Shown here: piece after piece, positions 25,520 through 42,232 of the stretch | Position numbering within the stretch: position 1 is the first letter of the stretch | How the letters are laid out: each line of letters starts with the position of its first letter | Assembly (NCBI GenBank): GCA_965207735.1 | Contig: OZ242296.1 | Location: forward strand, 160,001 to 224,000 | Direction: 5' to 3' | DNA from: Candidatus Versatilivorator sp. | GTDB lineage: Bacteria; Acidobacteriota; Terriglobia; Versatilivoradales; Versatilivoraceae | DNA: 64,000 nucleotides | The notes under the pieces: generated by a model | What the model saw: only the letters and a program-made list of their open reading frames with translations | What the model was told of the DNA's origin: nothing | The model's database searches: none | Translations under genes and position numbers: made by a program

Positions 25520-25710
25520 ATTGGTGGAATTAACTGTCCCCGCGTCCCGCAAAAACGTGTCGATATTGGGATGGCTCAAACCCCCGCAGCATGATGCGTG
25601 CAGCGGCCTGGAGCCTGCAGAAGGATCTGGCGGGGCATAGCGTGTCCACGTCTTGTCGGGCAAAACTCAGAAGTTGAGCAAAGTTATTCCAGTAATTCAA
25701 CAACGTCCCC
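25506..25710. mobile_element. 205-bp MITE, copy 3 (more diverged interior)
   Basis: Perfect 17-bp TIRs, same length as copies 1 and 2, different flanks. Confidence 0.85.
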
Positions 25711-25783
25711 TGCATTCTTTGCATATAATTCCCACGAGGTGTTCCCAATATCCTTACGCTACCGAAGCTTCGGAGAATTGACC

Positions 25784-26746
25784 ATGATTCGATCGTTTTG
25801 TCTTTCCATTTTGATTTCGTTGGCCACCATCCTCGTCCCGCCAGCCCTGCTCTCGGCGGATACTTGTGCGGAGCGCTTCGTTGTGGCCAGCGCCGTGCGC
25901 ACCCAGGGTGATGTCCAGGCTTTTGTCCAATGCGCCTACGAGTACGTCCAGGAAATGGGCATCGAGGAGGCCCGGCGGGCCTTCAACGAGGACGAGCAAT
26001 GGAAGAGCGGCTCCACCTATATCTTCGTCGACGAAGTGACTCCCATGACCGACATGGCTCGAGCGTTCGTCTTCCCACCCGACCCCTCCAGGGAAGGGGA
26101 GCCCTGGGGGCTGCTGATCGACGCGTTCGGCAACGACTACTACAAGGAGCTGACTCGTGTCATGGGCCACTCCGACGAGGGTTGGATCTACTACTCCTTC
26201 ACCAATCCGGCCACCGGCAGAGATGAGCCGAAGGCTTCTTATGTCAAGGCACTCGACTGGGGCGGAACCCCGGGGGCGATCGGCGCAGGAGTTTATCGCC
26301 GTGACATTCCGGGCACCTGCTGGAGCGAAGAAGTCCACGCCACGGGGCTGGAGGAGGATCCTTCCCCCGAAAGGCTGCAGGAGTTTGTCCGCTGCGCCGC
26401 CATGGAGTTGGATTCGGGGGGGTATTTCGCCTCGGTCAGCCTGGCCAACGATCCCCGTTGGCGAAGCGGCTCCATCTACCTGTTCGGGCTGGACATGTAC
26501 GGCTACACCCTCTTTACCGGCTCCCCGGCAAATCCCTTGATCGGCTCCGAGTTGTCCTCCAATTTCATCGGCAGTTTCGGGGGACGGAACGTTTTGGGTG
26601 TTGCCAATGCTTTTGGTGAAACCTTCCTCTACTACTCGAACCGGAATCCGGGCACCAACCAGTGGCGGCGCAAGGTGACCTTCGTCCAGCGGGTCACGTC
26701 TTTTGGAGTTCCGGTGCTGATCGGCGCCGGCTATTACCTGGATTGA
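25784..26746 (+). CDS. Secreted protein with two tandem Cache-like domains
   Basis: Signal peptide. Two repeats of FVxCA..., WxSGSxYxF, D/N-x-FG, YYS-x-xNPxT...K.SY/TFV and IGAGxY. GGAG SD before ATG 25784. Confidence 0.75.
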   Translation: MIRSFCLSILISLATILVPPALLSADTCAERFVVASAVRTQGDVQAFVQCAYEYVQEMGIEEARRAFNEDEQWKSGSTYIFVDEVTPMTDMARAFVFPPDPSREGEPWGLLIDAFGNDYYKELTRVMGHSDEGWIYYSFTNPATGRDEPKASYVKALDWGGTPGAIGAGVYRRDIPGTCWSEEVHATGLEEDPSPERLQEFVRCAAMELDSGGYFASVSLANDPRWRSGSIYLFGLDMYGYTLFTGSPANPLIGSELSSNFIGSFGGRNVLGVANAFGETFLYYSNRNPGTNQWRRKVTFVQRVTSFGVPVLIGAGYYLD

Positions 26747-26758
26747 GGCGATGTACCT

Positions 26759-27559
26759 TCAGGGGCCGATCAACTGCAGCCAGTCTACGAAAATGAACTC
26801 CATGCGGCCGACCAGCAGGGCAATTCGGCCCATCACGGTATAGCCGAAGGCTGCCCCGAAGGTGATCATGAGGATCCAGATCCCACCGCGGGACACCTGG
26901 CCCAGGAAGCCCTTGTGCTCCACGGAGAAGAAGAAGTAGATCAGGGCCGCCAGCAACCCGAACACGGTCACCAGGGCTGTCAGGGTCCCGATCCAATCGA
27001 TTCCCAAAAAGGCCGTCTGGCTGGGTTCCACCAGGGGAATCAGGGCGGGTGAGACCTGCTTGGTGAAATCGCTGACCAGATATCTGGTCAGGTTGGTGCC
27101 GGCGGCCCAACCCACAATGACCGCCAGCGGCCAACGGGCGATCCAGGTTCCCTTGGGCGCCAGCCGCCACAACAGCAGGCAACCGAGAACCAGTTGCACC
27201 AGGGCCATGCTCCGGTCGACAGGATCCACTTCCAACGGGACCTGGGCCATGTGCTCGTTCACAAAATGGGGAGCCAGCCTCCCCAGCATGTTGGGAATGA
27301 GCTGTTGCCAGATGCCCTGGACCATCCAGTAAGCCGCCGAGACCCCGATAAAGAGTGATTCCGCGAAGCGATAGAAGGGGTTGTCGTCGTATAGAAAGCT
27401 GAGGATGGAGAGGGTCAGAAAGGCTGCGAACCAGGTGCCCAGGCCGGCCCCGCTGACCCAGAATCCTTCCATCTGCCCCAGAGCGCTCCAGACCAGGGCG
27501 AACACCACCATAAGCCCTACCGCACCCACCACCAAGAAACGCCTGGTCTGCTCGTTCAT
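26759..27559 (-). CDS. Polytopic membrane protein of the GlmL-like module
   Basis: About 7-8 TM helices. Motifs SFLYDDNPFYRFAESLFIGVSAAY, YFFFS and MITFGAAFGYTVMGR. Confidence 0.85.
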   Translation of the reverse strand: MNEQTRRFLVVGAVGLMVVFALVWSALGQMEGFWVSGAGLGTWFAAFLTLSILSFLYDDNPFYRFAESLFIGVSAAYWMVQGIWQQLIPNMLGRLAPHFVNEHMAQVPLEVDPVDRSMALVQLVLGCLLLWRLAPKGTWIARWPLAVIVGWAAGTNLTRYLVSDFTKQVSPALIPLVEPSQTAFLGIDWIGTLTALVTVFGLLAALIYFFFSVEHKGFLGQVSRGGIWILMITFGAAFGYTVMGRIALLVGRMEFIFVDWLQLIGP

Positions 27560-27563
27560 TGAC

Positions 27564-28466
27564 TTACTTTTCCAGAGACTTCAGCCGTTCACCCGACGAT
27601 CCGCGTGAGGCAAAGTAGGCGATGTTCCCGACCACCAGGAACAGGATGATCACCAGGTGGGCCAGGGTTTGGGGACCCATGCGTCGAATGGCGGCAAACC
27701 TCTCCGTATCCGCCCCGTAGGCTTCCGAGTACCCCTTGATCAGGAGGGACTCGTACTCGGCGGCCGCTTTCAGGCCGCCCATGATCCCGCTGAGCTGCCT
27801 CGGATAGTAGGGGTAGAGCAACGGCGCCATGACCGCGGTAACCCCTCCGGCGACCGGTACGCCGGTGCGATCGCCCCCGAACTGGATCCACTCCTTGAGT
27901 CCGGGATACCCCCCGCTGACGTTGAGGATGAGATCCATGTCCTTGAGCCCCTTGACGTTCTGCATTATGGGGATCTTGTCGATGGGCGTACCTTCGACAT
28001 CCGACTGATAGAGAGTGCGAAAGTCCGCCACCACCACCTGGATGACCCCTTGTCCGCCCGGCCTGAAGCCCAGCATGACATAATCCCGGCCATACCTGTA
28101 GTCGGAGAACTCCTGCTCCAGCACCTGATCGACCGTCTTTAGCGTTTGCGCTTGACCGGTAGGCCACAGGCACATGAAGAACAGCTTCTGCTTGCGGCGG
28201 CCGAGGTGGCGGACATAGCTGTCGGCCATGGGCTGGAGCTCGGGCTCGCTTTCGGGGCCGTAATCGAATGGGAGCAGAACATTGGAGCCGGGGGGAAGCG
28301 CCTCGATTCGATCATAGATGGCCTGAACCTCGGGAGTTGCGACTTCGTCGATGGTCAGGTCGAAGGCCAGAGGAATCACGACCGCCAGCATGATGAACAG
28401 GAAGATCCAGCGTCGGTCAATGACCTGCAGGCGTTCAAACATCGAGGGTCTTTCCTTTTGAGCCAT
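27564..28466 (-). CDS. Membrane-anchored alpha/beta protein of the GlmL-like module
   Basis: N-terminal TM (DRRWIFLF), soluble domain (FDYGP..PELQPM, YGRDYVMLGF, PYYP.QLSGIMGGLKAAAEYE) and C-terminal TM (QTLAHL..GNI). Confidence 0.85.
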   Translation of the reverse strand: MAQKERPSMFERLQVIDRRWIFLFIMLAVVIPLAFDLTIDEVATPEVQAIYDRIEALPPGSNVLLPFDYGPESEPELQPMADSYVRHLGRRKQKLFFMCLWPTGQAQTLKTVDQVLEQEFSDYRYGRDYVMLGFRPGGQGVIQVVVADFRTLYQSDVEGTPIDKIPIMQNVKGLKDMDLILNVSGGYPGLKEWIQFGGDRTGVPVAGGVTAVMAPLLYPYYPRQLSGIMGGLKAAAEYESLLIKGYSEAYGADTERFAAIRRMGPQTLAHLVIILFLVVGNIAYFASRGSSGERLKSLEK

Positions 28467-28478
28467 GCGGATTTCGTC

Positions 28479-29315
28479 CTAGTCGTTATCGCTTCCCAGA
28501 TAAGAGCGTTCCACTCCGAGGATGAGTCGGAGCGACATGGAAATGATGCCCAGGCAGATACCGATCATGATGGCCCGTTGACCCGCCAACTGGGGCACGA
28601 CCATGATCCAGTTGACCAGGTCGGGAACGGTCAGGAGGTAGAAGTCTCCTCCTCCGGCCAGGATCAGGTAACCATAGAGGGTGCGAGCCAGCACAAAGGC
28701 GGCTAGTGCGCCAATCAACGAAAGTGAGACCCAGCGCTTGGAGCGGTATTGCTCCCATGCAAGGTAGGCCAGCAGAGCACCGAACAGCAGCTCGAGGGAG
28801 CCAGGCAAGGTTTCGGTGAGCGCCGTGCCCACCAGCGTCCGGCCCAGCAGGATGATCAGGGCCGCGATCAGCAGGACGGTGGCTTCCCGGTTCTTGGCCC
28901 GGAAGGCCCGATAGGAAGCGGAAGCCACAAAGAAGGCCAGCAGGGAGAAGGTGGTCGCCGACAGGGGAAGGAAGCAGTAGTCGTAGGCGGCTTGAAACCA
29001 GCTCCCTTCAGCCTCCAGGGCGTGCTTGACTCCGGACGGTCCGCCCACCTTGAAGAGCCCGATGGCCAGCACGGCGAAAAAGCCCGTCATGGTGACCGCG
29101 CTGTACCCCCAACCGGGCTGAGAACGGGAGATCTTGGCCAGGTGGATCTTGGCCAGGTTGCCCCCGCCCAGCACGAAGGCGAAGGCGGCCAGCACGTCAA
29201 AGGTGATGGACAGGCTCTCGTTGAGCTGGTCGAAGGGCGGGTGGGGGATGAAGGCCTCGAACAGCATGATGACCCCCACCACAAACGTGATCAGCAACGG
29301 TATCTGTCGTCGCAT
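28479..29315 (-). CDS. Polytopic membrane protein of the GlmL-like module
   Basis: About 8-9 TM helices. Motifs PLSATTFSLLAFFVASASYRAFR, WIMVVP..AGQRAIMIG and LRLILGVER. Confidence 0.85.
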   Translation of the reverse strand: MRRQIPLLITFVVGVIMLFEAFIPHPPFDQLNESLSITFDVLAAFAFVLGGGNLAKIHLAKISRSQPGWGYSAVTMTGFFAVLAIGLFKVGGPSGVKHALEAEGSWFQAAYDYCFLPLSATTFSLLAFFVASASYRAFRAKNREATVLLIAALIILLGRTLVGTALTETLPGSLELLFGALLAYLAWEQYRSKRWVSLSLIGALAAFVLARTLYGYLILAGGGDFYLLTVPDLVNWIMVVPQLAGQRAIMIGICLGIISMSLRLILGVERSYLGSDND

Positions 29316-29324
29316 TCGGGTTTC

Positions 29325-30524
29325 CTAGACGAACATCTCCAGCTTGAGAAAATCCACCACCGACTGAAGGCCTCCACTTCCCGTCCACAGCGCCAGGGTG
29401 GCGGTGAGGCTCCCCAGAAGAATGGCCCCCATCACGATCAGCTTGCCCACATCCTGCCCCTTGAGACTGCCCAGTTGCTTGGGATCGCCGCTCAGATAGG
29501 CGCTGGCCGCGAAGAGTTCCTCGCCCATCAGCGTGTAGTCACAGGCCGCCACGAAGAATGGAAGCTGAGAAGGCATGGCGGTGCCGGCGATCTGGATGGC
29601 CCCGATCCGGTTGCCGGTCTCGGCCAGCAGCAGGGATTCGGCGAAAAAGGCTCCCATGTAGAGGCAGGTGGCCGGCTCGTCCCGAAGCAGCATGCCGTTG
29701 ACCCCGGCGACGTAGCCGAACTGCTCGTCGGTGAGGTAGTGGACCATGTCCTCGTTGTAGCTCTCGGGGCGGCCGGCTTCCAGGTAGGCCTGCCTCACCA
29801 CCTCCCTGCCGGTGGTCATGACCAGAGAGCGGCTGACCGGGACGTCCAACTTGGCGTCGTACTCGGCGATGGTGCGGGAGACGTATCCCAGCAGGGTGAG
29901 ACCGGCCAGGGTCTGAACGTTGTCCATGTCCATGATCCCCGGCACGAAGACTACCGGCCGCCCCATCTCGGTGGCGCGGCCCACGGCTTCGTCGACAGCT
30001 TCCAGGCCCGCGATCTTGCGCACGAACAGTTTGCGGCCTCGGCTCGCCAGCTGGATAAAGAGGATGACAAAGAAACAGATGGTGCCGCCGATGATGAGAA
30101 TCCACAGCTTGTCCCGGTCGAACCACTGGGCCCTGGATTCTCCGGTCACGACTTCGGAAGAGGCACTGGAGTCGGCCGTTGTGGCCACTACCTTGAAAGA
30201 ATAGCGGACACCCCGTTCGGCGCTGGAGAATGTCCACGCCTCCTCGCCGGGGCCCACCGATCCCAGCGACAGCCAGGAGGCCTCCTCGGTGCCCGGAGCC
30301 GTTTCCTCGGGCACGGGTGACCGGAAGACTTCATAGGAGAGGACCCCGGGATCGGGGGAATCCTTCCAGCGGATTTCGATGGCGTGCCCCGAATCGTTGG
30401 GCACGTCCGACGCTTGCACTCCGGTCGGCGGAGACGGTGCCTTCGAAGGAGCGTCCTGCGCCTCGAGCAGCGGAGCGAGTGCCAGGGTGGCGACCCATAG
30501 AGCCGGCGCACAACGGAATTTCAT
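29325..30524 (-). CDS. Fibronectin type III + DUF6754-like membrane protein
   Basis: Signal peptide, Fn3 domain (PSPPTGVQASD..IRW..YEVFRS..YSFKVVA), TM, then RKIAGLEAVDEAVGRATEMGRP, QFGY, FFAESLLLAE, QIAGT..QLPFF..CDY.LMGEELFAASAYLS, and a C-terminal TM. Confidence 0.85.
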   Translation of the reverse strand: MKFRCAPALWVATLALAPLLEAQDAPSKAPSPPTGVQASDVPNDSGHAIEIRWKDSPDPGVLSYEVFRSPVPEETAPGTEEASWLSLGSVGPGEEAWTFSSAERGVRYSFKVVATTADSSASSEVVTGESRAQWFDRDKLWILIIGGTICFFVILFIQLASRGRKLFVRKIAGLEAVDEAVGRATEMGRPVVFVPGIMDMDNVQTLAGLTLLGYVSRTIAEYDAKLDVPVSRSLVMTTGREVVRQAYLEAGRPESYNEDMVHYLTDEQFGYVAGVNGMLLRDEPATCLYMGAFFAESLLLAETGNRIGAIQIAGTAMPSQLPFFVAACDYTLMGEELFAASAYLSGDPKQLGSLKGQDVGKLIVMGAILLGSLTATLALWTGSGGLQSVVDFLKLEMFV

Positions 30525-31654
30525 CAGTCGCGACCCTCGATTATCTCGACGTTGGCCCGGGGCACGTAAACCGGCTCTTCCAGGCCCTCCACCCGCACCG
30601 AAACCACCCTGGCCCTGGACCCCGAATCCAGCCGGGTCGGCTCGGAGGGCAGGGCCGCCACCCGGCCCAGCTTTCCGAACCAGGGATTGCGGATGATGCG
30701 GACGGTGCTTCCGACGTCCATGCCCTGCTCCCGGGTCCGCTCCAGTGACTGCGGAGCCGCGCCCTTGAGGGGGATAATCACCTCGGGGCGAATGACTCCG
30801 GCTCGAATCTGGGTGGCTCCGTTGATGGAGGCCCGCTGTCCCTGGTGGCGTTTCAACAGCCTGAAGGTGCGGGGCGCCATGTCGATTCTTCCAAATCCTT
30901 CGGTGACGATCAAGGTCACACCGAGATTTTCATGTCCGGTAATGGCCACACCGAGGTCATGGCCCAGGAATCGCCGCAGGTCCTGGTCATCGAATCCTCC
31001 CGCCACCACGCCGCGGATGCCGAGATCAACCGCCTTCTGAAGGGCGGCTCCGGTGACCAGCGACCCTCCGACCACCACCCGGCCGCGCAGGTCCGACGAG
31101 AGCGACTCTTCGTCCAGGACCTCTCGGGGCGAGGAGGAAACCATGGCAATCTCACCGGCGGCCTCGCCTCCGATGCCAAAGATTCCCTGAATCAGGGTCC
31201 CGCAGCTTTCGACCACCACCCCCTGCTCGGGCACCACCTCCCGGACCCGGCCCTCGATGTAGGCCTCGACTTCAACCGGTTGTGGCGGGCCCCGCAGCAC
31301 CACCTGTCCGGTGACACCGGAAATGCTTTCGATGGTCCCATCCAGGGTGGCCGCCGCTCGGGAGGTGAGCAGGCCGAACAGCGACCTGGCTTCGGCAATG
31401 ACCTCGCCCTGGCGCACCTGCTCGCCCTCCTTCTTGAGCATGGCGCCCGGCACGTCGCTTTGATCGACACCCATCTTGTTGGCGACGTTGACGATTTCGA
31501 CCTTGCCCGGCAGGAAGGTGCGGGCCACCACCTGGTGGGGCTCGACCCTGGCTCCCTCCTCCACCACCACCTCCCCCGGAATGGGCAGAAGCCGCCGCCT
31601 GTGGAGCAACTCGTTCTCCGTCACCTTGAGACCGGGAGTGTAGGCGTGGGCCAT
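30524..31654 (-). CDS. Conserved hypothetical cytoplasmic protein with barrel-sandwich-hybrid-like N-terminus and KOW-like C-terminus
   Basis: GEVVVEEGARV, LKKEGEQVRQGEVIA and DGTIESIS (NqrA/RnfC-N-like pattern). Also QGIFGIGGE, TEGFG, GATQIRAGVIRPE and GSTVRIIRNPWFGKLGRV. Confidence 0.85.
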   Translation of the reverse strand: MAHAYTPGLKVTENELLHRRRLLPIPGEVVVEEGARVEPHQVVARTFLPGKVEIVNVANKMGVDQSDVPGAMLKKEGEQVRQGEVIAEARSLFGLLTSRAAATLDGTIESISGVTGQVVLRGPPQPVEVEAYIEGRVREVVPEQGVVVESCGTLIQGIFGIGGEAAGEIAMVSSSPREVLDEESLSSDLRGRVVVGGSLVTGAALQKAVDLGIRGVVAGGFDDQDLRRFLGHDLGVAITGHENLGVTLIVTEGFGRIDMAPRTFRLLKRHQGQRASINGATQIRAGVIRPEVIIPLKGAAPQSLERTREQGMDVGSTVRIIRNPWFGKLGRVAALPSEPTRLDSGSRARVVSVRVEGLEEPVYVPRANVEIIEGRD

Positions 31655-31658
31655 GGCT

Positions 31659-33476
31659 TCAGCGAGGGATCGCCCCCGGGGAATAGACGCCGATTTCCTC
31701 GATCCAGGTTTTCAGGGCGCCAATTCTCTCGGCCGGATCCGAGTGGAGCGACAGGGGCCGCCCCCGGCAATCGACAACCAGTCCGACGGTTCCTCCTTGA
31801 ACCGTGGCTTCCAGCGGCACACCCTTGCCGGATCCCAGGTCGAAATCCCGGGCGGGGTCCAGGTAAACCCGGGCCTCGGCGCCGGTCTCCAACGGGTGCC
31901 GGCGCATCTCGCCAACTCGGAGGGTCTCCCGTCTCTCTTTGCCTCCGGGAAGCTCCAGCCTGTAGGCCAGGGCCGGCCGGCCCGGCTTGGCCGTGCCCCG
32001 AGGGGCGATGCAGGTGCCCAGCACGACCAGGCAGTCCTTTTCGAAGACTTCGGTGGCTGCCCGGGCATGCACCTGCGACAGGACGCCAAGGTGGGGCATC
32101 ATGAAGATGCTGTCCTTGGCCAAGCGGGTGATCCCCTCCGGAAGGAAGGAGTCGATTAGCATCATGGCGGTCTGCTCCGCTCGGGGCGCGTGAGAGAGCA
32201 CGCCGCCGGAGGCCACCAGCAGGTCCAAGTCTATCATCTTCACCAGGGATTCGATCCCCGCGTCCTGCTCGAAAGAATCGGCGATGGTGCGTTGCTGCTG
32301 AACCCCCTTGAGCCGGGTGGCGAAGGAACGGTGCTGGAGGAAGGCCAGGCGCAGCGCCTCTCTGGCGACCGCCTGTTCGAAGACCAGTTCCTCGGCCGTC
32401 TGGGGGATAGTGGTCGGGCGGATCATCTTGTTCTTGATACGGTTGCGCAGATCCCCCTCCTCCATGGTAAAGGGCATCCATCGCATGACGTTGGCCAGTC
32501 CGGCTTCGGCCAGGACGTTGGAGATGGAGTAGCTCATCCCCAGGTTGGCCGACACGGTGCGGTTGAAGTCTTCCCCGAACACGCTGAAGACATCGGTGGT
32601 GGCCCCGCCGATATCCACTCCCACGGCGTTGATCCCGGCTTCAGTGGCCACCCGCTTGAGGATGGCTCCTACCGCCGCAGGAGTGGGCTGGATGTCGGCG
32701 TCGACCCATTCCATCAGCTTGGCGTAGCCGGGCGCCTGTTGCATGACGTGCTCCAGAAACAGGTCATGGATGCGCTCGCGGGCGGGCAGAAGGACTTCCT
32801 CTTCCAGGGTAGGCCGAAGGTTTTCGACGATGCTGAGACTGGTCTTTTCACCCAGCACCCGGGTGACTTCGTCGCGGCGGGAGCGGTTGCCGGCATAGAT
32901 GACCGGCAGGCGATAACCGGCCCCCAGTCGGGGCTTGGGATCGGCGGCCCCAATGGTCTCGGTGATCTTGATCACCTTGTCGGTCCGGGCGCCGTCGACC
33001 TCGCCGGCGATCAATATCATGTCCGGCCGTAGCTGGCGGATGCGTTCGATGCGCTGGTGGGGCAGGCGCCGGTCGTTGAGGGCGATGACGTCCATCACGA
33101 TCGAGCCGGCTCCCAGGGCGGCCCTCTCGGCGCTTTCGGCCGTCATCGACCGGACCACTCCCGCCACCATCATCTGCAGCCCTCCGCCGGCGCTGGAGGT
33201 GGAGATATAGAGATCGCATCCCTCCTCACCCCTGGTGGGGCGTATGATCCGGCCCTCGGCGTCCAGCAGCTTGCGGCCCGAAAGCTCACCCAACTCCGTC
33301 ACCGCGTTGAGCACGCCCAGAGTCACGTCTTCGAAGGGGGCTTCCACCGTGGTGGGGGCTTCGCCTCGATGGGTCTGGCGGTACTCGTCCCCTACCTTCT
33401 GGATCAGGATGGCCTTGGTGGTGGTGCTGCCGCAGTCGGTGGCGAGAATGACTCGAATGTCGTCCAACGGGGTCAC
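31659..33476 (-). CDS. GlmL/MutL (glutamate mutase L)-like ASKHA ATPase with C-terminal extension
   Basis: Phosphate-1 TDCGSTTTKA, TSSAGGGL, TAESAERAALGAG, PTP, phosphate-2 VDIGGATTDVFS, RTVSANLGMSYS and ASGGVLSH. GTG overlaps the upstream TGA. Confidence 0.88.
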   Translation of the reverse strand: MTPLDDIRVILATDCGSTTTKAILIQKVGDEYRQTHRGEAPTTVEAPFEDVTLGVLNAVTELGELSGRKLLDAEGRIIRPTRGEEGCDLYISTSSAGGGLQMMVAGVVRSMTAESAERAALGAGSIVMDVIALNDRRLPHQRIERIRQLRPDMILIAGEVDGARTDKVIKITETIGAADPKPRLGAGYRLPVIYAGNRSRRDEVTRVLGEKTSLSIVENLRPTLEEEVLLPARERIHDLFLEHVMQQAPGYAKLMEWVDADIQPTPAAVGAILKRVATEAGINAVGVDIGGATTDVFSVFGEDFNRTVSANLGMSYSISNVLAEAGLANVMRWMPFTMEEGDLRNRIKNKMIRPTTIPQTAEELVFEQAVAREALRLAFLQHRSFATRLKGVQQQRTIADSFEQDAGIESLVKMIDLDLLVASGGVLSHAPRAEQTAMMLIDSFLPEGITRLAKDSIFMMPHLGVLSQVHARAATEVFEKDCLVVLGTCIAPRGTAKPGRPALAYRLELPGGKERRETLRVGEMRRHPLETGAEARVYLDPARDFDLGSGKGVPLEATVQGGTVGLVVDCRGRPLSLHSDPAERIGALKTWIEEIGVYSPGAIPR

Positions 33477-33838
33477 TCGGCAGCTCCCTCGAGGTGGTCG
33501 GCGGAGGCCGGGTCCTTTCCCGCCCCCTGATTCTCGATCTCTTGCAGCAGGGTTTCGACGCTTTGACGGCGCTCCAGGATGCGCCGGACCCGTCCATAAT
33601 CGGTGGCCGCGAAGAGTCCGCGAACCACCGGTTCAAAAAAGGCCATGGCTTGGCTCCCCAGGTAGTTGAGCGGCTTGGCCGACTCCAGGATGAAGAGGGC
33701 CGGTGTCTCCATTCGCCGCCGCACGATGGCTGCCGCAATTCTCTCCAGCAGTCGGCGTTCCTGGTCGGTAAGCGGCTCCTCGTATCGCTCCAGGGAGAAC
33801 GCCTGCTTCAACCTGCGCCTCCAGGATGGCTGCATCAT
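33473..33838 (-). CDS. Small conserved hypothetical protein
   Basis: IVRRRMETPALFILES.KPLNYLGSQAMAFFEP. ATGA overlap at 33835-33838 and GTGA overlap at 33473-33476. Confidence 0.8.
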   Translation of the reverse strand: MMQPSWRRRLKQAFSLERYEEPLTDQERRLLERIAAAIVRRRMETPALFILESAKPLNYLGSQAMAFFEPVVRGLFAATDYGRVRRILERRQSVETLLQEIENQGAGKDPASADHLEGAAE

Positions 33839-34281
33839 GCCCTCGACCTGGCCGGAGTCGGCCGGATGATTTTGCGTTGCACGAAACGGACCACGGCCTG
33901 GCGGTCGGCCCCCGCGAACCGCAGGTAGAGGCCGCGGTGGGATTCCAGGCGGCTGCGCTCGGAAAAGGGACTCAGCAGCACCCCGTGGGCGTCGACCCAG
34001 TAGGACCGGCAAGAGGACCAGGGCTTGTGCTGACGGTACCACAGGATGCGGCTGGAGACACCCTCCTCGCTGAGCTGATAGGTGGTGGGCAGCAGGAAGT
34101 CATGGACACCGACCAGCAGCAGGATCACCGACAAGAGAGTCCAGCCCGGACTCTGCGTGCCCAGAAAGACGGCCGCCGCCGTGGCGGCAACCACCAGCAT
34201 CAGCACCAGACCCTTCCAGGGCGTGGCTTGTACCGGCAGACTCACCCAGCACACGGATGTCTCCTGTCCTGCATCTTTCAC
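33835..34281 (-). CDS. Small membrane protein (2 TM + PH-like beta domain)
   Basis: Two TMs, then FLLPTTYQLSEEGV...KPW...GVLLSPF..SRLESHRGLYLRF. GTG overlaps the TGA of the DUF4175-like gene. Confidence 0.75.
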   Translation of the reverse strand: MKDAGQETSVCWVSLPVQATPWKGLVLMLVVAATAAAVFLGTQSPGWTLLSVILLLVGVHDFLLPTTYQLSEEGVSSRILWYRQHKPWSSCRSYWVDAHGVLLSPFSERSRLESHRGLYLRFAGADRQAVVRFVQRKIIRPTPARSRA

Positions 34282-37200
34282 CGGGCCAGTGCCTTGTAGT
34301 AGTCCTCCACCTGCTTGCGGTACCGGGAAGGAGCGTCCTCGTCCTTGACCAGATGAATCGAGTCGCTCCCGTCCAGTTGCCGGACCTTGCGGCCAAGGTC
34401 GAATTCCAGTTGCCGCAGGCCCTCGATGACACTTCGGCGAAGTCGCTCCAGTTCCTGGGGGTCGGCAAGGAACTGGAGCGACTTCATCTGTTCCATGCGT
34501 TTCACCATGTTTCTGACCTGGGCCGCCAGATCGGCGTCGCCTGCGAGACTTCGTCTCAAATCCCGGGCTTCTCCCAGGCGATGCTGGAACTCCTTTTCAA
34601 ACTGGCGGGCCTGTCGAGGCGTCAGAGTGGTGGGCGGTGGCAGCTCCCGATCGCCGAAATTGACGGCCGCCTGACCCCGGCCCCGGCCTGACCGTCTCTG
34701 CTCCGGGTTCTCCGCGGCGGCGGACCTTCCCGTCTGCGACTGCCGCCGAAGTCCCTGCGGCCGTTTCGGCTCGGGAGACTTGCCGGAGCCGGCCCCGGAA
34801 GGTCCGGCCGGCTGCTCGGCCCCGGAGCGGGCCTGGAGGTCCGCGATCCGTCGCTTCAGCGACTCCAGGTTCGACAGCAGGTCTCCGGCCTGCATCAGCG
34901 CCCGGCTCAGCCGTTCTTCCGCCGACGGTTTTGCCGGGCCTTTGCGGGCGGCCTCTCCGGCTGCAGCCACTTGATCCCGCAGGTCCGACAGGGCGGTCTG
35001 GATGCGTTGCTCGTCCTGTGCGGCGAGGTCCAGCAGTCCCAGCTGCAGGAGCTGCCGGCTTTGATCCATCTGTTCGTGCAGTCCCCGGTTCCGGATGGAT
35101 TGGCCGGCGGCCCTCAGCCGTCGCGAAGCCTCGGGCTGCTGCAGGTCGGCTCCTTTGGCAGCGGAGAAGAGCCGGCCTTCCATCTCCCTGAGTGACTGCT
35201 GCAGGCCGGTCTTGTCCCTCAGCATGCGCCGTCTTTGCTCTAGCAGAGGCTCAATGGGATCCTCTCGATCGACGCCTGCTTTCAGACCTTCCAACTCAGA
35301 CCGGATGTGTCTCTGCCGCTGCACCAGATCTCGCGCCTGGCTCCGAAGTCGGCTCAATTCCGAATCCATGTCCGTCCGGCGTTGGCGATCCAGCACCGAG
35401 CCGGCCTCCCGGATCCGGCTCAATGCCTGCAGACCCCGGTTTTCCGCCTGGCTTCCCCCGGCGCCTCTGAGCTTCCGCATTTCCCTGGCCGCTTGCTGCA
35501 GGCGTTGGCTCACCTCTCGCAAGGAAGGACGTTCCATCTCCCTGGAAAGCCGCTCCAACCGTCTGGCCAACTTCTCCGCCTCCGCCTGAAGCATCCCTTG
35601 CTGGGACCCTTCAGCTCCGCCGAGCTGTCGGCTGGCGCCTTCCAGCATCCTGCGGCGTTGGTCCTGGTTGATCTGCTGCTGCCGTCGGGCCAGTTCCTGC
35701 AGCTTGCGGGTGGCTTCGTCCATCTGCCGGCGTGAATCGGGGGGGCCGGCCTGCTGCTGGACCTCGTATTGGTTCTTCAGCTTGTCCAGCTCCAGCTCGA
35801 ACAGGCTCTCCAGTTCCTGGGCCCAGGTCGTCCGTCCCTGAGCACCGCCGCGAGCCACCTGGACTTCCTTGTAGAAAGTCTCGGCCCGCATCAGGGACTG
35901 CAGTGCCCTCTGCTGGTGGGGAACGGCCTCATCCGGATCGCGTTGGGAGAGCGATCGATGGGCCGGAACCATGGCCTGGATCGCTTGAACCAGGTTCTCG
36001 GAGAACTTTTGAATGTCCGGGTCGAGGCCGGTCAGGGCCCTTCTCTCGACCCGGTCGGCCAGGGATTGGGTGCGCTGTTGCAGCTTGAGCTGGAGTTCTC
36101 CCAGCAGTCGCAGGGAATTCCGAAATTCATTTTTCTCCAGACGCTTGCGGTCTCGAATCAATCCCCAGGTGGCTACCAGGATCTGCTTCTGGCGCCGGGA
36201 GAGCAGCGAATCCAGGTTGGAGGAGCCTCCGCCCCGCCGGGCTCCCGACTGGCGTTGCTGGTATTGCTTGCCGAAAGGGCGCACTTCCAGAAAGTAGATG
36301 TCGCTGGTGGTGGTCGAAAGGGCATCGGAGGCCCGGGCGAAGTAGCTGACGAAGTCGCCCGGCTGCAACTCGAACTCCTCCAGGAAAAAGGTATGGGTTG
36401 CCGAGATGGAGCGGGGGAGAGGTCCGCCCCCGGGTTTGAAAAGGTCTATCTTGGCCGGCCGCGCGCCGTTGAGGGAGTAGTGTAGCTCCAGGTTTCTCAG
36501 GCCAAAGTCATCGTCGGCCTTGGCCTCGGTCAGGACCTCCTCCAGGGCAGTGGCCTGCCGGTCCCGTCCCGGCCGGTTCCAGGCCACCTGGGGAGGCTGG
36601 TCCCGGATGGCGGAAATGGCGTAGGCATGGGATTCCACCATCTCGCCGGTCCAGTCCTCGGTGAGCTGGATTCGATAGGTCGAGTCGCCGGAGACCTTGA
36701 TTTCCCCGATGACGGCCGGTCCCTCCTCCTTTTGCATCGGGATGGGAGTCCCGTCTCCCAGCAGAATGCGCGCGGAGACCGGTTCCAGGTTGAGGTGGGC
36801 CTTGACCTCGACCCGAGTGCCGCGAAGGGCTTCAATGTCTCCGCCGTTTCTCTCGGTGCGCCGGGGCAGGCCGGTGTAGGACGGAAAACGATAGGTCAGA
36901 TCGATCTGTCGAACTCGAGCCGTCTCCAGGACCGAGAGCTCATAGGCGTCGGAGCGGATGTTGGAGGCCTGGACGTAGTAGCGTATGGGTTCGCCGATGT
37001 CCACGAAGGAGAACTCGAATCGGTTGGCGCGGGCTTCAGCTGTCATCGGTCGGGATCTCCAGCTTCCACTCCGGGGGTCGCGGAAAAACAGCTGGACTGA
37101 TTCCGCCTCAAAGCCCTCTAGCCTGGCCGTGACGGTTTGATCCGACCCCTTGCGGACGCGGGCGTCGCCGGGAGACACCTGGATGTGATAGAGCCGGGCC

Positions 37201-37766
37201 GCCTGGGGCCACCATTGATCTGCATATAGCTTCAGAGTCGCGAACTGGAAATAGTGGGGACCATGGAGTTGCAGCAGGACAAACAGCAGCACCAGAGCGG
37301 AACCGATCAAGGCCGACTGCAAGGGTTCCTTGCGGTTGAAAATCTCCGGAGGCTTGACGAAACGGCTCTGATGGGCCGCATCACGCAGCAAGAGCGACAG
37401 GAAGGGGTGGCGTTGGGCAGTGCGGTCCTTCCGGGAGTCCAGCTCGACGGCTGTGACCAGGCGATCCTGCAGCTGGGGGTAGTGTTCCTCGATGGTGCGG
37501 GCGATCTGAAAGTCGCTGACTCGCCGAGCCAGGGGGCGCACCACCAGCCAGGCCAGAGAAAGCCCGATTACGAGCAGGGAGGTCCAGCGGGCCAGCAGGA
37601 GGGCCTTCCGGCTGTAGTTCCAATAGTCGACGCCGACCACGGCGACAGCCACCACCATCAGGGAGAGCCCCAGCCACCAGGCAAGGCCCCGGATCGAAGC
37701 GATGCTCTTGAAACGCCGGCGGGTCCGCCGGATGGTGGTCTGCAAGCGTTGCCGTTCCGCGGTCAT
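34278..37766 (-). CDS. Large DUF4175-like membrane-anchored protein (Ig-like domains + coiled coil)
   Basis: N-terminal TMs, LQDRLVTAVE, FPSYTGLP, ADDDFGL, LQPGDFVSYFARA, long Q/R/E coiled coil and terminal YRKQVEDYYKAL. Confidence 0.85.
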   Translation of the reverse strand: MTAERQRLQTTIRRTRRRFKSIASIRGLAWWLGLSLMVVAVAVVGVDYWNYSRKALLLARWTSLLVIGLSLAWLVVRPLARRVSDFQIARTIEEHYPQLQDRLVTAVELDSRKDRTAQRHPFLSLLLRDAAHQSRFVKPPEIFNRKEPLQSALIGSALVLLFVLLQLHGPHYFQFATLKLYADQWWPQAARLYHIQVSPGDARVRKGSDQTVTARLEGFEAESVQLFFRDPRSGSWRSRPMTAEARANRFEFSFVDIGEPIRYYVQASNIRSDAYELSVLETARVRQIDLTYRFPSYTGLPRRTERNGGDIEALRGTRVEVKAHLNLEPVSARILLGDGTPIPMQKEEGPAVIGEIKVSGDSTYRIQLTEDWTGEMVESHAYAISAIRDQPPQVAWNRPGRDRQATALEEVLTEAKADDDFGLRNLELHYSLNGARPAKIDLFKPGGGPLPRSISATHTFFLEEFELQPGDFVSYFARASDALSTTTSDIYFLEVRPFGKQYQQRQSGARRGGGSSNLDSLLSRRQKQILVATWGLIRDRKRLEKNEFRNSLRLLGELQLKLQQRTQSLADRVERRALTGLDPDIQKFSENLVQAIQAMVPAHRSLSQRDPDEAVPHQQRALQSLMRAETFYKEVQVARGGAQGRTTWAQELESLFELELDKLKNQYEVQQQAGPPDSRRQMDEATRKLQELARRQQQINQDQRRRMLEGASRQLGGAEGSQQGMLQAEAEKLARRLERLSREMERPSLREVSQRLQQAAREMRKLRGAGGSQAENRGLQALSRIREAGSVLDRQRRTDMDSELSRLRSQARDLVQRQRHIRSELEGLKAGVDREDPIEPLLEQRRRMLRDKTGLQQSLREMEGRLFSAAKGADLQQPEASRRLRAAGQSIRNRGLHEQMDQSRQLLQLGLLDLAAQDEQRIQTALSDLRDQVAAAGEAARKGPAKPSAEERLSRALMQAGDLLSNLESLKRRIADLQARSGAEQPAGPSGAGSGKSPEPKRPQGLRRQSQTGRSAAAENPEQRRSGRGRGQAAVNFGDRELPPPTTLTPRQARQFEKEFQHRLGEARDLRRSLAGDADLAAQVRNMVKRMEQMKSLQFLADPQELERLRRSVIEGLRQLEFDLGRKVRQLDGSDSIHLVKDEDAPSRYRKQVEDYYKALAR

Positions 37767-37784
37767 GGATTAAGGTAAGTGCGT

Positions 37785-37978
37785 CCCCCGCCCTGCCGGG
37801 CGGATTATACATAGAGTGAAACAATCAGAAATCGATCAACCCTTCGCGAACTTGGTACCCCGTCTCGGCCAACCTCAGCGCCTTCGTGCCCCTTCGTGGT
37901 CCTTCGTGCCCCTTCGTGGATAAGTCTTTGTCTTTTGTCTTTTGTCGTTTTTCGTTTGTTTCAGACAAGCCGGGCCCC
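37785..37978 (-). repeat. Family A repeat copy inside the operon spacer
   Basis: Reverse complement of ~4231-4415, near identical (GTGAAACAATCAGAAATCGATCAACCCTTCGCGAACTTGGTACCCCGTC...TTGTTTCAGACAAGCCGGGCCCC). Confidence 0.88.
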
Positions 37979-37986
37979 TCCGGCCA

Positions 37987-40083
37987 TCACTCCGGTACGC
38001 CGTTAGAATAGCGGTTCGCCAGCAAACTCTCAACCAACAACGCCAGACAGGCGGTCAGCACCAGATACCACCAGAGATGCTGCCGGTTTTCGAGGGCGTG
38101 GCGACCGTCGAGCGAGGTTGGCGCCCGCGGCGCGGCGCCCGCTTGGCGGGACTCCCGAGGCAATTGCGCCAGGCGTGGTTCCGGGTTTGGGCTGCGCAAA
38201 TCCGACTCCCGCGGATCCAGATTGGCGGCCAGCAGGTGTTCTGTCTCCTGTACACGGAAGCGATAAAAGCCCGGTTCGGTCAATTTCAGTGAAGACGGGT
38301 CTGCGCCGAGCAGATCGTCCAGGGGAATCTCCCGGCCGGAAGGCGCGACCACCGTCCAGGTGTGGGCATAGGAGCGGTTGGAGCTCGAGAGTTTGGCCAG
38401 GGCCTTGCTCCACTGAGGATTCAGGGAATCGAGCGCGACCCTTTCGCCGACCCGGTAGGCTTGCGGGGAGGGTTGGAAACGGGCGGCGTACTTGACCATC
38501 TCCTGGCAGAAGGGCAAGAAGACAGACTTCAGGGGGAGCTGGTTCCAGCTTCGATCCAGGGATGAGGTGAACAGCAGGATCCGGCCATTGCCGAGCCCTC
38601 TCTCCAGCAGCAGGGGACTCCCGTTCTGCAAGTCGGCCAGGACCTGGCTGCCCGCCAGGGGTTCCACCAGGTGGAAATCGGTGAAGGGGGTTGCCATCAG
38701 ATAGGAGAAGTGGACTTCTTCAAAATGGTTGAAGATCGGATGGCGCTTCCGCAGCCGGCCGATGAGCTGATCCCCGCCTTGGCCGGCGGCCCGGTACCGC
38801 TTCAGCAGCCTGGCCGGCAGGATCTCTTCCAGCTCGCCCAGGCTGTCCGCATGGGTTCGGCGTCCTGAAATCAGCAGCATTCCTCCCCCCGATTCGACAA
38901 ACCGGACCAGGGCTGAAGCCGTCTCCTCGGACAGGGGGCCGCTGTTGTTCAGAATTACTGCGGCATAAGAAGACAGCCTGGCCGGTGGAATCCGCCCCGG
39001 TTCAGCTATCTCCAGGTCGATAGGGGAATCGGGACTGGCCGTCAATGCCCGGCTCAGATAGTAGTGATCCCGGCGGTCGCCTCCCAGCAGCAGGGTCTTC
39101 AGGCGGGAAGGAGGAGAGAGCGAGCTGTAGGCGAAGTTGTCCTCGGGCAGGGCATCCTCGAATTGCAGGTGAAGCCTGGCATGGGACTCGCCCCGGGGGA
39201 CGGCTACCGACTCGAACCGGACCGCTCTCCTGTCGTCGACTCCCAGGCGAACTGTTCGACTCCCGGCGGGTTGTTCGTTGATCTCCAGGGCCAGAACCAG
39301 CTCCAGAGCCTGACGGAGGTTCTGGGATCGAGTTTCGGCGGTGATGGATACCCGTGAAGAGGAACGATCTTCGGGTTGGATCGTCACCTGGCCGATCGAG
39401 ACATTGGTTGCGGGAATCGACGCCACCGGGTAGGTATGAAGGTCAACCCTCTCATCGATGGAAATCCCTTGCGATCCCGGTTTCCAGCCCGACTCCTGAA
39501 AGTCGCTGACCCAGTGGATCTCCAGGGATCGGTCCGGAATGCCCGCCAGGAGCTGGTCGGCCAACCGAAGGGCGGGCCCGTAGTCGGTCCCCGCAAACCC
39601 CGGCTCAAGGGCGTCGATGAGGCTGAGGACCTCCCTGGGATTGGCCTCGGGCCGGTTGAGGATCTGCGTGGAATCGGAAAAGCGGACCACCTGGACCCGG
39701 TCGCCGGGACTCGCACCCTGCAGAATCGATCGGACCCGTGTCTTGGCTTGCTCGAAGCGGTCCCCGAAGCGCATGCTGAAGGAGTCATCCAGCAGAAGGA
39801 CCAGGGATCGGCCGCCCGGGCCGGAAATACCGATGGCGTCGGAGTCGGTGAGCAGCGGACGGGTAAATGCCAGCACCACCAGCAGCAAGGCGGCCAGGCG
39901 CAGCAGCAGCAGCAGGGGGTTCCGCAGCCGCTGCTTCCGAAGGGAGGCCCTCGGAGTGCGGCGGATGAACATCAAGGAGCTGAAGAGAACCTGGCGCGAG
40001 GTCTCCCTGCGCACCAGGTGGACCAGGATCGGGCCTATCAGGGCGAGACCGCCAATCAGGAATAGCGGGTTGAGGAATTGCAT
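37987..40083 (-). CDS. BatA N-terminal double-TM + vWA domain protein
   Basis: MQFLNPLFL..PILVHL, FTRP, MIDAS DDSFSM, SDFQ, GATase-like segment and NLDPRESDL..LWWYL C-terminal TM. Confidence 0.9.
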   Translation of the reverse strand: MQFLNPLFLIGGLALIGPILVHLVRRETSRQVLFSSLMFIRRTPRASLRKQRLRNPLLLLLRLAALLLVVLAFTRPLLTDSDAIGISGPGGRSLVLLLDDSFSMRFGDRFEQAKTRVRSILQGASPGDRVQVVRFSDSTQILNRPEANPREVLSLIDALEPGFAGTDYGPALRLADQLLAGIPDRSLEIHWVSDFQESGWKPGSQGISIDERVDLHTYPVASIPATNVSIGQVTIQPEDRSSSRVSITAETRSQNLRQALELVLALEINEQPAGSRTVRLGVDDRRAVRFESVAVPRGESHARLHLQFEDALPEDNFAYSSLSPPSRLKTLLLGGDRRDHYYLSRALTASPDSPIDLEIAEPGRIPPARLSSYAAVILNNSGPLSEETASALVRFVESGGGMLLISGRRTHADSLGELEEILPARLLKRYRAAGQGGDQLIGRLRKRHPIFNHFEEVHFSYLMATPFTDFHLVEPLAGSQVLADLQNGSPLLLERGLGNGRILLFTSSLDRSWNQLPLKSVFLPFCQEMVKYAARFQPSPQAYRVGERVALDSLNPQWSKALAKLSSSNRSYAHTWTVVAPSGREIPLDDLLGADPSSLKLTEPGFYRFRVQETEHLLAANLDPRESDLRSPNPEPRLAQLPRESRQAGAAPRAPTSLDGRHALENRQHLWWYLVLTACLALLVESLLANRYSNGVPE

Positions 40084-40114
40084 GGGGCGCCACGGGAACG
40101 ACCGGGTCTCGTCC

Positions 40115-41035
40115 CTACATCGATTTCCGCCTGGTGGAAAGGTAGCGGTAGAGAGCCAGGTCCAGGGGTTGGGAGGTATCCAGAACCATGAAGTCCACTC
40201 CCAAGGCGCCGCAAAGGTTCCTGATCTCCTGCTGATGGCTCTCCAGTCGCGCCAGATAGTCGGCTCGAACCAGTGCCGGATCCATGATCAGTCTGCGGCG
40301 GGTTTCCATGTCCACCATTTGAACGGAATCGGAAAAATCGAACCGCTGCTCCTGGGGATCCTGAATCTGGATGACGATGACGTCATTGCCCTGGAAGCGG
40401 AATTGCCGAATGCTCTCCAAGATCTCCCCGGTGGGAGCATACAGGTCGGAGACAAGAACCACGATGCCTCGCCTGCGGATGGTCTCGGCCAGTGCCCGCA
40501 GCGGTTTCCCGAAAGCGGTCGCGGACTCGGCTTTGGCTTTGTCGATCAGGTGCAGCAGGCTCAACAGGTGCTCCCGCCGGCAGCGCGGGGGCAGCTTGTC
40601 CACCAGTCCGGCGGCGAAGGTGGTCAACCCTGCTCTGTCCCGTTGCCGCTGGGCGAAATAGGCCAGGCTGGCCGTGAGATAGCGGGCGTAGTCCATCTTG
40701 GTGACGGAGCCCGAGCGGTAGGCCATGGAACCGGAGATGTCCAACAGCAGATAGACGTTGGTGCTGGTCTCGCCCTCGTACTGCTTGACGTAGTGGCGGT
40801 CGGATCGGGCATACACTTTCCAGTCGATCTGGCGAATGTCATCTCCTTCGATATATTGGCGGTACTGGGCGAAATCCACACTGAAGCCCAGGAAGGGCGA
40901 TCGATGCAGGCCGGAGATAAATCCTTCCACGACCGTTCGCGCCACCAGCTCCAGGTCGCCGATTCTGGACAGGACGGCGGGGTCCAGGAAACGCAACGGA
41001 GAGTGTTGAGAGGCCGTTCCCGCCTGGGGACTCAT
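40115..41035 (-). CDS. DUF58 (vWA-like) protein
   Basis: GLHRSP..GFSVDFAQYRQY..GDDIRQIDWK, LLDISGSM and VSDLY. Confidence 0.92.
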   Translation of the reverse strand: MSPQAGTASQHSPLRFLDPAVLSRIGDLELVARTVVEGFISGLHRSPFLGFSVDFAQYRQYIEGDDIRQIDWKVYARSDRHYVKQYEGETSTNVYLLLDISGSMAYRSGSVTKMDYARYLTASLAYFAQRQRDRAGLTTFAAGLVDKLPPRCRREHLLSLLHLIDKAKAESATAFGKPLRALAETIRRRGIVVLVSDLYAPTGEILESIRQFRFQGNDVIVIQIQDPQEQRFDFSDSVQMVDMETRRRLIMDPALVRADYLARLESHQQEIRNLCGALGVDFMVLDTSQPLDLALYRYLSTRRKSM

Positions 41036-41063
41036 GGGACTGGCTCCCTGTCAGGTGACCGGG

Positions 41064-42128
41064 CTACAAGCCCGAGGACGGCGCCGGTACGGCTTCGATC
41101 AGCTTGCCAATGATCAGGTCGGAGTTCACCTGTTCCGATTCGGCGTGAAAGTTGGTGAGGATGCGGTGGCGGAGGATCGGCGGCGCCAACTCGCGGATGT
41201 CATCCACCGACACGTTATAGCGGCCCTGCAGGACCGCCTTGGCTTTGCCGCCCAGGATCAGGAACTGCGAGGCCCGCAAGCTGGCGCCGTAGTTGACCCA
41301 GGACTTGATGAAGTCGGGAGCGCTGGGGTCGCTGGGACGGGAGGCACGGACCAGTCGAACAGCGTAGCGGGCAACCGAATCGGCAACGGGGATGCGGCGG
41401 ACCACGCGCTGGAACTCCACGATGTCCGCCCCCCCGATCAGGGGTTGGTAGCGAATGTCGCGCAGGGAAGTGGTGTCCTTCACCACCTGGATCTCATCCG
41501 ACTCCGAAAGATAGTCGATCAGAATGTTGAACATGAAGCGGTCGACTTGGGCCTCGGGCAGAGGATAGGTGCCTTCCAGCTCGATGGGGTTCTGGGTGGC
41601 CAGCACGTAGAAGGGAGGCTGGAGGTCGTAGGTGACGCCCTGAACGGTCACGCTGTACTCCTGCATGGCTTCCAGCAGGGCCGACTGAGTCTTGGGTGGG
41701 GTTCGATTGATCTCGTCGGCCAGAATGATGTTGGCGAAGATCGGACCCTTGACGAACACCATCGTCCGCCGCCCGGTGGCCTGGTCTTCCTCGATGATGT
41801 CGGTGCCGGTGATATCGGCCGGCATCAGGTCGGGTGTGAACTGGATCCGATTGAACTTCAGGTCCAGGACCTTGGCGATGGTCTTGATCAGCAGGGTCTT
41901 GGCCAGGCCCGGCACGCCGGTGATGATTGAATGCCCCCCCACGAATAGAGAAACCAGAGCCTGATCCACCACGCGGTCCTGTCCGACGATCTCCCTGCGA
42001 ATTTCGCGCAGGATCTCCCCGTGGGCCCGCCGCATCTTTTCCAGCAGCTCCACCTCGGAAGCGGCCGGTGCGCCGTCCCCCGGAGCGACGAGGGCCGTTT
42101 CCTGCGTCGATTGAGGGTTGATGGACAT
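41064..42128 (-). CDS. moxR: MoxR family AAA+ ATPase
   Basis: Walker A GVPGLAKT, RIQFTPDLMPADITG, LADEINRTPPKTQSALLEAMQE and ATQNPIELEGTYPLPEAQVDRF. Confidence 0.95.
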   Translation of the reverse strand: MSINPQSTQETALVAPGDGAPAASEVELLEKMRRAHGEILREIRREIVGQDRVVDQALVSLFVGGHSIITGVPGLAKTLLIKTIAKVLDLKFNRIQFTPDLMPADITGTDIIEEDQATGRRTMVFVKGPIFANIILADEINRTPPKTQSALLEAMQEYSVTVQGVTYDLQPPFYVLATQNPIELEGTYPLPEAQVDRFMFNILIDYLSESDEIQVVKDTTSLRDIRYQPLIGGADIVEFQRVVRRIPVADSVARYAVRLVRASRPSDPSAPDFIKSWVNYGASLRASQFLILGGKAKAVLQGRYNVSVDDIRELAPPILRHRILTNFHAESEQVNSDLIIGKLIEAVPAPSSGL

Positions 42129-42232
42129 GGGGCTGCACTTTTCGCCCAAGGGCTGCCGCCCTTGAGAGGTTGATACCGGCCCGGGGGGCTCCGGACCCCG
42201 CCCGAGGTCAAAGACCCGCGGGATTCAGGCGC

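Follow-up and report, generated by a model that had tools for sequence, protein, structure and literature searches.

Introduction

The ASKHA proteins GlmL/MutL, an accessory to the coenzyme-B12-dependent glutamate (methylaspartate) mutase, and Or-4, of the ornithine pathway (PF13941; NF040745, NF040744, TIGR01319), share conserved phosphate-1, phosphate-2 and adenosine motifs, and a passage of one paper calls MutL/GlmL a chaperone that reactivates glutamate mutase, citing a diol-dehydratase study (PMC4682846). Here we analyze an operon of eight genes, named g1 to g8 in transcription order, whose third gene encodes a member of this family with the same motifs. The operon spans positions 34281 to 26759 on the minus strand of a 64-kb stretch of the Candidatus Versatilivorator sp. 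genome (the window, that is, the whole stretch of DNA analyzed), and it likely encodes a membrane machine, driven by ATP and not described so far, that probably serves import.

Three further systems bear comparison. ECF-type (group II) vitamin importers use ABC ATPases with T and S components; the likeness lies in organization only, with one energizer apparently shared by separately encoded membrane modules, whereas the ATPase here is an ASKHA protein and none of the eight proteins matches an ECF or ABC family. The membrane core of Na+-NQR and Rnf (NqrD/E, RnfA/E) consists of two oppositely oriented six-helix subunits, a feature that is also predicted here. The diol/glycerol dehydratase reactivase DdrAB associates an ASKHA ATPase with a swivelling domain, which in the present system is carried by g4, often fused to the ATPase. 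We know of no membrane module for DdrAB, nor of any membrane transporter driven directly by an ASKHA-fold ATPase; if demonstrated, the system would represent a new way to couple ATP to membrane work.

A literature search, covering few of the subscription journals, yielded no description of this system and no paper that names DUF6754 or PF13941. What is new in this analysis is the dichotomy with respect to GlmE, established with controls, the co-occurrence of unlinked parts of the system, its presence in genomes without the B12 enzymes tested, and the prediction of ATPase-dependent docking.

Results

Organization of the operon

The original prediction listed eight genes with overlaps or gaps of at most 12 nucleotides (nt), and a check of the open reading frames (ORFs) recovered all of them on the minus strand over that span. 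The ORFs encode proteins of 148, 121, 605, 376, 399, 278, 300 and 266 amino acids (aa), with spacings between successive genes of -4, -4, +4, -1, +9, +12 and +4 nt. Only g3 (PF13941) and g5 (DUF6754) could be assigned to a family by Pfam and NCBIfam. The host genome, assembled as a single contig with 100% completeness, carries each operon gene once. Its B12-binding (8), methylmalonyl-CoA mutase (3) and ABC ATPase (PF00005; 35) matches all fall outside the window, as had been claimed for mutase, B12-binding and ABC genes.

g3 is a predicted ATPase set apart from GlmL

The g3 gene (31659..33476, minus strand) encodes a 605-aa long-form protein that matches PF13941 with 401.6 bits over positions 1-450 (cut-off 27) and carries a C-terminal extension of approximately 110 aa. 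It falls below the cut-offs of the NCBIfam models NF040745 (204.3 versus 475), NF040744 (201.5 versus 600) and TIGR01319 (146.9 versus 204). The motifs DCGSTTTK and DIGGATTD, noted in the original prediction, are both present and invariant in an alignment of 39 rows, in which g3 is 60-69% identical to its 38 homologues. Indeed, the ASKHA phosphate-1 (D14-K21), phosphate-2 (D288-D295) and adenosine (S423-S428) motif residues are all invariant, with the exception of L426, which is nearly so, and g3 is predicted to be an ATPase with intact nucleotide-binding motifs.

When compared to four canonical GlmL copies, the long forms are 26-32% identical, and display RTVSANLG where canonical GlmL has RTVEGDLG. 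In a quick tree, whose four canonical GlmL rows are all long-branched, 22 long forms are set off by a branch that has 100% support in the SH-like approximate likelihood ratio test (SH-aLRT). Gene content was analyzed with genomes G207, G212 and G314 as positive controls for GlmE (PF06368). No GlmE match was found in the host's complete genome, and none above cut-off in the 49 system-positive genomes. Among 301 genomes of the phylum to which the window belongs, 12 have PF13941 over cut-off; in nine, six of them from one family, this is a long form located about 2 kb from DUF6754 with no GlmE in the genome, and in three it is a short form adjoining glmE, with no DUF6754. Three further genomes of the 301 carry GlmE with no PF13941 match over cut-off. 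Both points on which the original prediction had proposed to compare the ATPase with canonical GlmL, namely its branch in a tree and the presence of a cognate glutamate mutase, thus set it apart. As opposed to GlmL/MutL, the g3 system is never found beside a mutase, is paired or fused with g4 and is linked to membrane genes. Judging from sequence and gene content, long-form g3 is not a glutamate-mutase helper, and the label 'glutamate mutase L' on these genes wrongly implies B12-dependent glutamate fermentation.

The affiliation of g3 to PF13941 would also fit a role in reactivating some coenzyme-B12 enzyme whose gene lies at another site, the membrane genes being passengers. The host carries three methylmalonyl-CoA mutase genes and a diol-dehydratase large subunit, with no match in its genome to the reactivase family PF08841 (for which no positive control passed the cut-off), and methylmalonyl-CoA mutase is present in 48 of 70 system-positive handles, two pairs of which seem to be the same genome. 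It is missing, however, from the other 22. Twelve of these also lack GlmE and the lysine/ornithine aminomutase, ethanolamine lyase and diol dehydratase families, in a set whose completeness is unreported and in which class II ribonucleotide reductase was not searched. Together with the 0/49 count for GlmE and the near-perfect co-occurrence of the ATPase with DUF6754 described below, this largely refutes the reactivase explanation, which we consider very improbable.

We note that a fused diol/glycerol dehydratase large-subunit gene (760 aa) is located with a small subunit at G000:C1:4068899-4071630. Two gene pairs (G000:C1:3576949-3583424 and 2642513-2644549) were read as methyltransferase systems; from their sequences we take them to comprise a uroporphyrinogen-decarboxylase-like and a corrinoid protein, and the gene after one of the pairs presumably encodes a RACo-like activator.

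The genes form one inherited unit of two separable parts

Related loci were taken as the best 80 of 580 relatives from a scan of several genome collections. They are 59-93% identical and carry the labels Acidobacteriota, Planctomycetota, Zixibacteria, Fibrobacterota, Ignavibacteria and Deltaproteobacteria. Where at least 6 kb of downstream sequence is available, g4 to g8 are present in 46 of 50 loci, in identical order in all 46 (the exceptions being L017, L077, L079 and L085), and where at least 1.5 kb lies upstream, g2 is found in 64 of 65 loci. Among 251 Planctomycetota genomes, in which kin are not independent, PF13941 and PF20539 (DUF6754) occur together in 86, the former alone in three, the latter alone in two, and neither in 160; the system is thus present in about 35% of them. 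Co-occurrence in other genomes, which the original prediction had proposed as a check, is therefore widespread, and the system is both common in Planctomycetota and present in many little-cultured phyla. Two of the source names for g6 homologues, Thalassoglobus neptunius and Thalassoroseus pseudoceratinae, are those of what we take to be cultured planctomycetes.

In three genomes (G452, G369 and G523), g2-g3-g4 are located at least 250 kb away from g5-g8. Since co-occurrence holds even where the parts are unlinked, the association between g3 and DUF6754 exceeds mere adjacency. L078, L086, L090 and L111 each carry a block duplication of the g5-g8 quartet, extra membrane modules without an adjacent ATPase are found in these four loci and in L105, and genome G071 carries the quartet as a stand-alone second copy. 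The ATPase stays single where the quartet is multiplied. The genes form one inherited unit of two separable parts, an energizer (g2-g3-g4) and a membrane module (g5-g6-g7-g8).

The g2 gene (33473..33838, minus strand) encodes a 121-aa soluble protein of no known family. It precedes the ATPase gene in most loci, directly precedes g5 in 8 of 80 metagenome loci, and in G071 accompanies the second membrane module, which has no ATPase. From these positions we infer that g2 is an adaptor linking the ATPase pair to the membrane module.

Tandem ATPase-g4 pairs with g2 in between were observed in L145 and L150, and in L145 they are preceded by genes for a peptidase S58, an asparaginase II and an M20 peptidase. 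A divergent ATPase-g4 fusion without KOW domain was identified in L127-L131 and L149 (proteins P0337-P0347), with Zn_ribbon_2 in P0340 and P0346; a metagenome scan with P0345 alone gave no matches.

g4 is a three-domain partner of the ATPase

The g4 gene (30524..31654, minus strand) encodes a 376-aa protein, for which an AlphaFold model was obtained with a predicted local distance difference test (pLDDT) value of 88.5. The model and fold searches delineate a barrel-sandwich hybrid (49-123), a swivelling beta/beta/alpha domain (152-297) and a KOW domain (308-376); the first and last had been recognized in the original prediction, while the swivelling domain had gone unseen. Nearly all long g4 homologues (59 of 60) are fused to the ATPase. 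A search of the ESM Atlas with g4 returned only unnamed relatives. One apparent g4-g5 fusion (P0333), a single sequence ending inside DUF6754, was discounted as a likely frameshift artefact.

The best fold match of the swivelling domain is the phosphohistidine domain of phosphotransferase system (PTS) enzyme I (Z 9.5, root-mean-square deviation (rmsd) 2.8, 108 aligned residues), and DdrA is absent from the top rows of the fold search with g4. The PTS match raises the idea of a membrane-bound ATP-dependent enzyme or group translocator, in which g3 would be a kinase, g4 would carry a phosphoryl or substrate group and DUF6754 would be catalytic. The hydantoinase/oxoprolinase relatives of g3 (weak Hydantoinase_A match, E 3.6e-4) and the many invariant polar residues in the g5 alignment are in line with it. 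A comparable score is nevertheless obtained with RraA (Z 8.7), representative of proteins that are not phosphorylated. In addition, no histidine is conserved in g4 (at most 20/42 rows at any column), and the hairpin at the tip of the barrel carries an invariant F93-G94 in place of the biotin/lipoyl lysine. By these sequence criteria g4 is not a covalent carrier of the biotin/lipoyl or phosphohistidine kind, and we regard group translocation as distinctly unlikely.

Predicted docking of the ATPase pair on g5

A complex prediction was made for g3 (6-492) and g4 (8-298) together, the partner being residues 160-366 of g5, its predicted cytoplasmic domain. The docking score was 0.53, compared to 0.01 for the best of three controls and 0.00 when g3 was replaced; agreement between runs is at least 81% of contacts, with partner pLDDT values of at least 72. 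In the calibration, made on pairs of single chains, 116 of 157 solved complexes and 2 of 215 mismatches attained the mark. Scores of 0.60 or below account for only 18 of the 157 solved complexes and for both mismatches, and the value of 0.53 was thus graded as weak. Of the interfaces that the original prediction had proposed to look for, an ATPase-dependent one with membrane subunit g5 was therefore obtained, at this weak grade, and the model lends weak support to docking of the ATPase on the cytoplasmic DUF6754 domain. We count it as modest support, since the pairing was likely beforehand from genomics and there is no solved relative to memorize.

Architecture of the membrane module

The 399-aa g5 protein (29325..30524, minus strand) comprises a signal peptide, an outside Fn3 domain, a transmembrane (TM) helix, DUF6754 and a second TM helix. 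As suggested by the original prediction, it belongs to DUF6754, and is a full member of this Pfam family (PF20539; 399.3 bits), which is catalogued without function; its Fn3 match is sub-threshold. The external Fn3 domain that had been proposed is present in g5, but is not an essential part of the machine, being missing from several g5 homologues. The 300-aa g7 protein (27564..28466, minus strand) has a Rossmann-like domain between two TM helices. The remaining two, g6 (278 aa; 28479..29315, minus strand) and g8 (266 aa; 26759..27559, minus strand), are membrane proteins, as predicted. The helix counts of about eight and seven given for them need correction: alignments show in each a conserved six-helix core (glycine-rich in g8) with extra helices that are lineage-specific.

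Topology was analyzed through the density of lysine and arginine, with loop limits set by eye. In g5 it is 0.23 after the first helix versus 0.09 before it, and in g7 it is 0.26 and 0.38 at the termini versus 0.07 after the first helix. In g6, values of 0.24-0.34 are found in the N-terminus and even loops versus 0.03-0.07 elsewhere, and in g8 the odd loops reach 0.15-0.18 versus 0.03-0.07. Because this bias alternates, g5 and g7, as well as g6 and g8, are predicted to have opposite orientations: the DUF6754 domain would be cytoplasmic and the g7 domain periplasmic, with g6 N-in/C-in and g8 N-out/C-out. Insertions of Fn3, PKD, TIG and EF-hand domains are located in the segments predicted to be outside. 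Longer forms of g6 were considered as fusions and rejected, as 120 of the 120 listed are periplasmic insertions.

The g7 and g8 proteins are fused in six natural proteins, and the model of a natural fusion displays a pLDDT of 83.1 and a predicted template modelling score (pTM) of 0.52. Only generic Rossmann folds match the g7 domain (best Z 9.2, rmsd 3.7, 162 aligned residues). The g8 search gave 2660 representatives at E<=0.001; no Pfam family is common to the 39 members scanned, and for g6 no family was found by Pfam, NCBIfam or PDB sequence search. PDB sequence searches with g3, g6, g7, g8 and the DUF6754 part of g5 gave no significant match; the only matches were to Fn3 and, weakly, KOW. 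The DUF6754 domain had no usable match in the ESM Atlas.

The g4 barrel resembles the N-terminal barrels of RnfC (Z 7.8, rmsd 2.5, 64 aligned residues) and NqrA (Z 7.5, rmsd 2.1, 64 aligned residues), but this fold is common. In contrast to Nqr/Rnf, none of g6, g7 and g8 has a cysteine shared by at least 80% of rows, and Pfam detects no iron-sulphur or flavin subunit domains among the eight proteins. Glycines and small polar residues make up most of the conserved membrane positions, and E67, R245, R247, H270 and K361 lie close to the ends of helices. An ion-coupled complex was one of the options originally put forward; a redox complex like Nqr/Rnf is an unlikely form of it, as the membrane helices show no conserved cofactor ligands.

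Discussion

A possible transport mechanism

The proposal that the ATPase has been recruited to energize or regulate a multi-subunit membrane machine is supported by co-inheritance, the absence of GlmE and, weakly, the predicted interface with g5. We put at about even the chance that the actin/Hsp70-fold ATPase and its swivelling-domain partner drive exchangeable, pseudo-symmetric four-subunit modules, constituting a class of primary active transporter distinct from the ABC, ECF, P-type and rotary ones. That the operon encodes a new class of ATP-driven transporter organized like ECF importers, and specifically a small-solute importer, we hold to be slightly short of even. In such a scheme, the alpha/beta domains of g5 and g7 would be located on opposite faces of the inner membrane, and g6 and g8, as oppositely oriented six-helix bundles, would form the core. 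Cargo would be picked up by the g7 domain in the periplasm, and the ATPase cycle, transmitted through g4 and g5, would make the g6/g8 core face outward and inward in turn (alternating access), one shared motor serving several exchangeable membrane modules.

The cargo could, as a weak guess, be peptides or amino-acid derivatives, since genes for peptide uptake lie next to a few loci: the doubled membrane module of L111 is directly followed by two genes for SBP_bac_5 peptide-binding proteins (L111:14973-18781), an OPT transporter lies beside L016 and an Opp-type ATPase beside L080.

Several observations weigh against a transporter of this description. The L111 binding proteins have no match at any other locus, and among 95 flanking proteins, which are mixed housekeeping ones, no substrate, catabolic or regulator gene recurs. 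An inward direction of transport is suggested by analogy. Homology between g5 and g7 or between g6 and g8 was not detected with hhalign (probability at most 1.4%); the best local g5/g7 alignment, in register over 79 columns, is insignificant (E=0.036, probability 1.4%), and g6/g8 scores no better than reversed controls. The pTM of the g7-g8 fusion model leaves its packing uncertain, and a fold search with this model gave no match to a known transporter, the list being filled by the soluble domain with the helices barely covered. Furthermore, g5 was seen in only 30 of 80 metagenome loci, many of whose contigs are short, and the six loci with the divergent ATPase-g4 fusion have no membrane genes in their 5-21 kb of DNA, so that some divergent g3-g4 fusions may act at a distance or with another partner.

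The housekeeping-like neighbourhoods devoid of substrate genes could also be expected of a machine that uses ATP to work on the envelope, be it by exporting or moving lipids or other envelope components or by applying force across the periplasm. Consistent with this idea, the periplasmic insertions are very long and variable, including coiled coils and Fn3/PKD domains, and g5 itself is up to 1272 aa long; in L107 (L107:3509-13421) a gene for a PD40 (TolB-like) propeller lies inside the operon, between the ATPase and g4, and is accompanied by an OmpA-domain gene that follows; and BamD-like TPR genes are found upstream in L088 and L090. These envelope neighbours are, however, no less sporadic than the peptide ones, and the patchy distribution of the system (9/301 and 88/251 genomes) and its tandem divergent modules are a better fit for substrate-specific units. 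We regard an envelope machine as unlikely, if less so than group translocation. In L107, we also observed a g5 outside extension of approximately 1000 aa, a duplicated g8 and a DUF58/MoxR pair located downstream.

A system for transmembrane signalling or remodelling, in which the periplasmic domain would sense a cue and a chaperone-like ATPase would bind and release the cytoplasmic domain without moving a solute, would be in line with the PH-like domain of g1. An ASKHA protein with a swivelling domain also recalls the diol-dehydratase reactivase, which swaps subunits. The description of GlmL as a chaperone, in the passage cited above (PMC4682846), points the same way. Nevertheless, the neighbourhoods hold no conserved output domain, kinase or transcription factor, and the approximately 16 membrane helices would be more than signal transfer usually needs; we judge this explanation to be slightly less probable again than group translocation.

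Accessory and flanking genes

The g1 gene (33835..34281, minus strand) encodes a 148-aa protein with two TM helices and a bacterial pleckstrin-homology (PH)-like domain. It is an optional though common member of the operon, encoded in 40 of the 65 loci that extend 1.5 kb or more upstream; bPH_6 matches were found in 6 of the 16 homologues scanned, one of them above cut-off. Directly upstream, window positions 34278-42149 (minus strand) hold genes for a MoxR AAA ATPase, a DUF58 protein, a BatA/vWA protein and a 1162-aa DUF4175-like protein. As the latter gene overlaps g1 by 4 nt, the operon transcript may begin within the MoxR/DUF58/BatA block, which is linked in 3 of the 80 related loci, all close kin. 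Promoter and terminator scans gave results at chance level. In two RNA runs from one marine study, contigs of a 92-96% identical relative extend across g5-g8 (word share 0.05-0.06), one of them terminating at the g8 stop; with possible DNA carry-over, neither was counted as evidence.

On the opposite side of the operon, a gene for a secreted double-Cache-domain protein (25598-26746, plus strand) converges on g8, 12 nt apart. Intergenic short repeats at 37770-37985, of which the DNA contigs of relatives skip about 37813-37979, suggest a small mobile or repeat element. At 58044-63998 (minus strand) an open frame as long as 1984 aa reaches the end of the window, and has at its start what we take to be a leucine-rich-repeat-like appearance.

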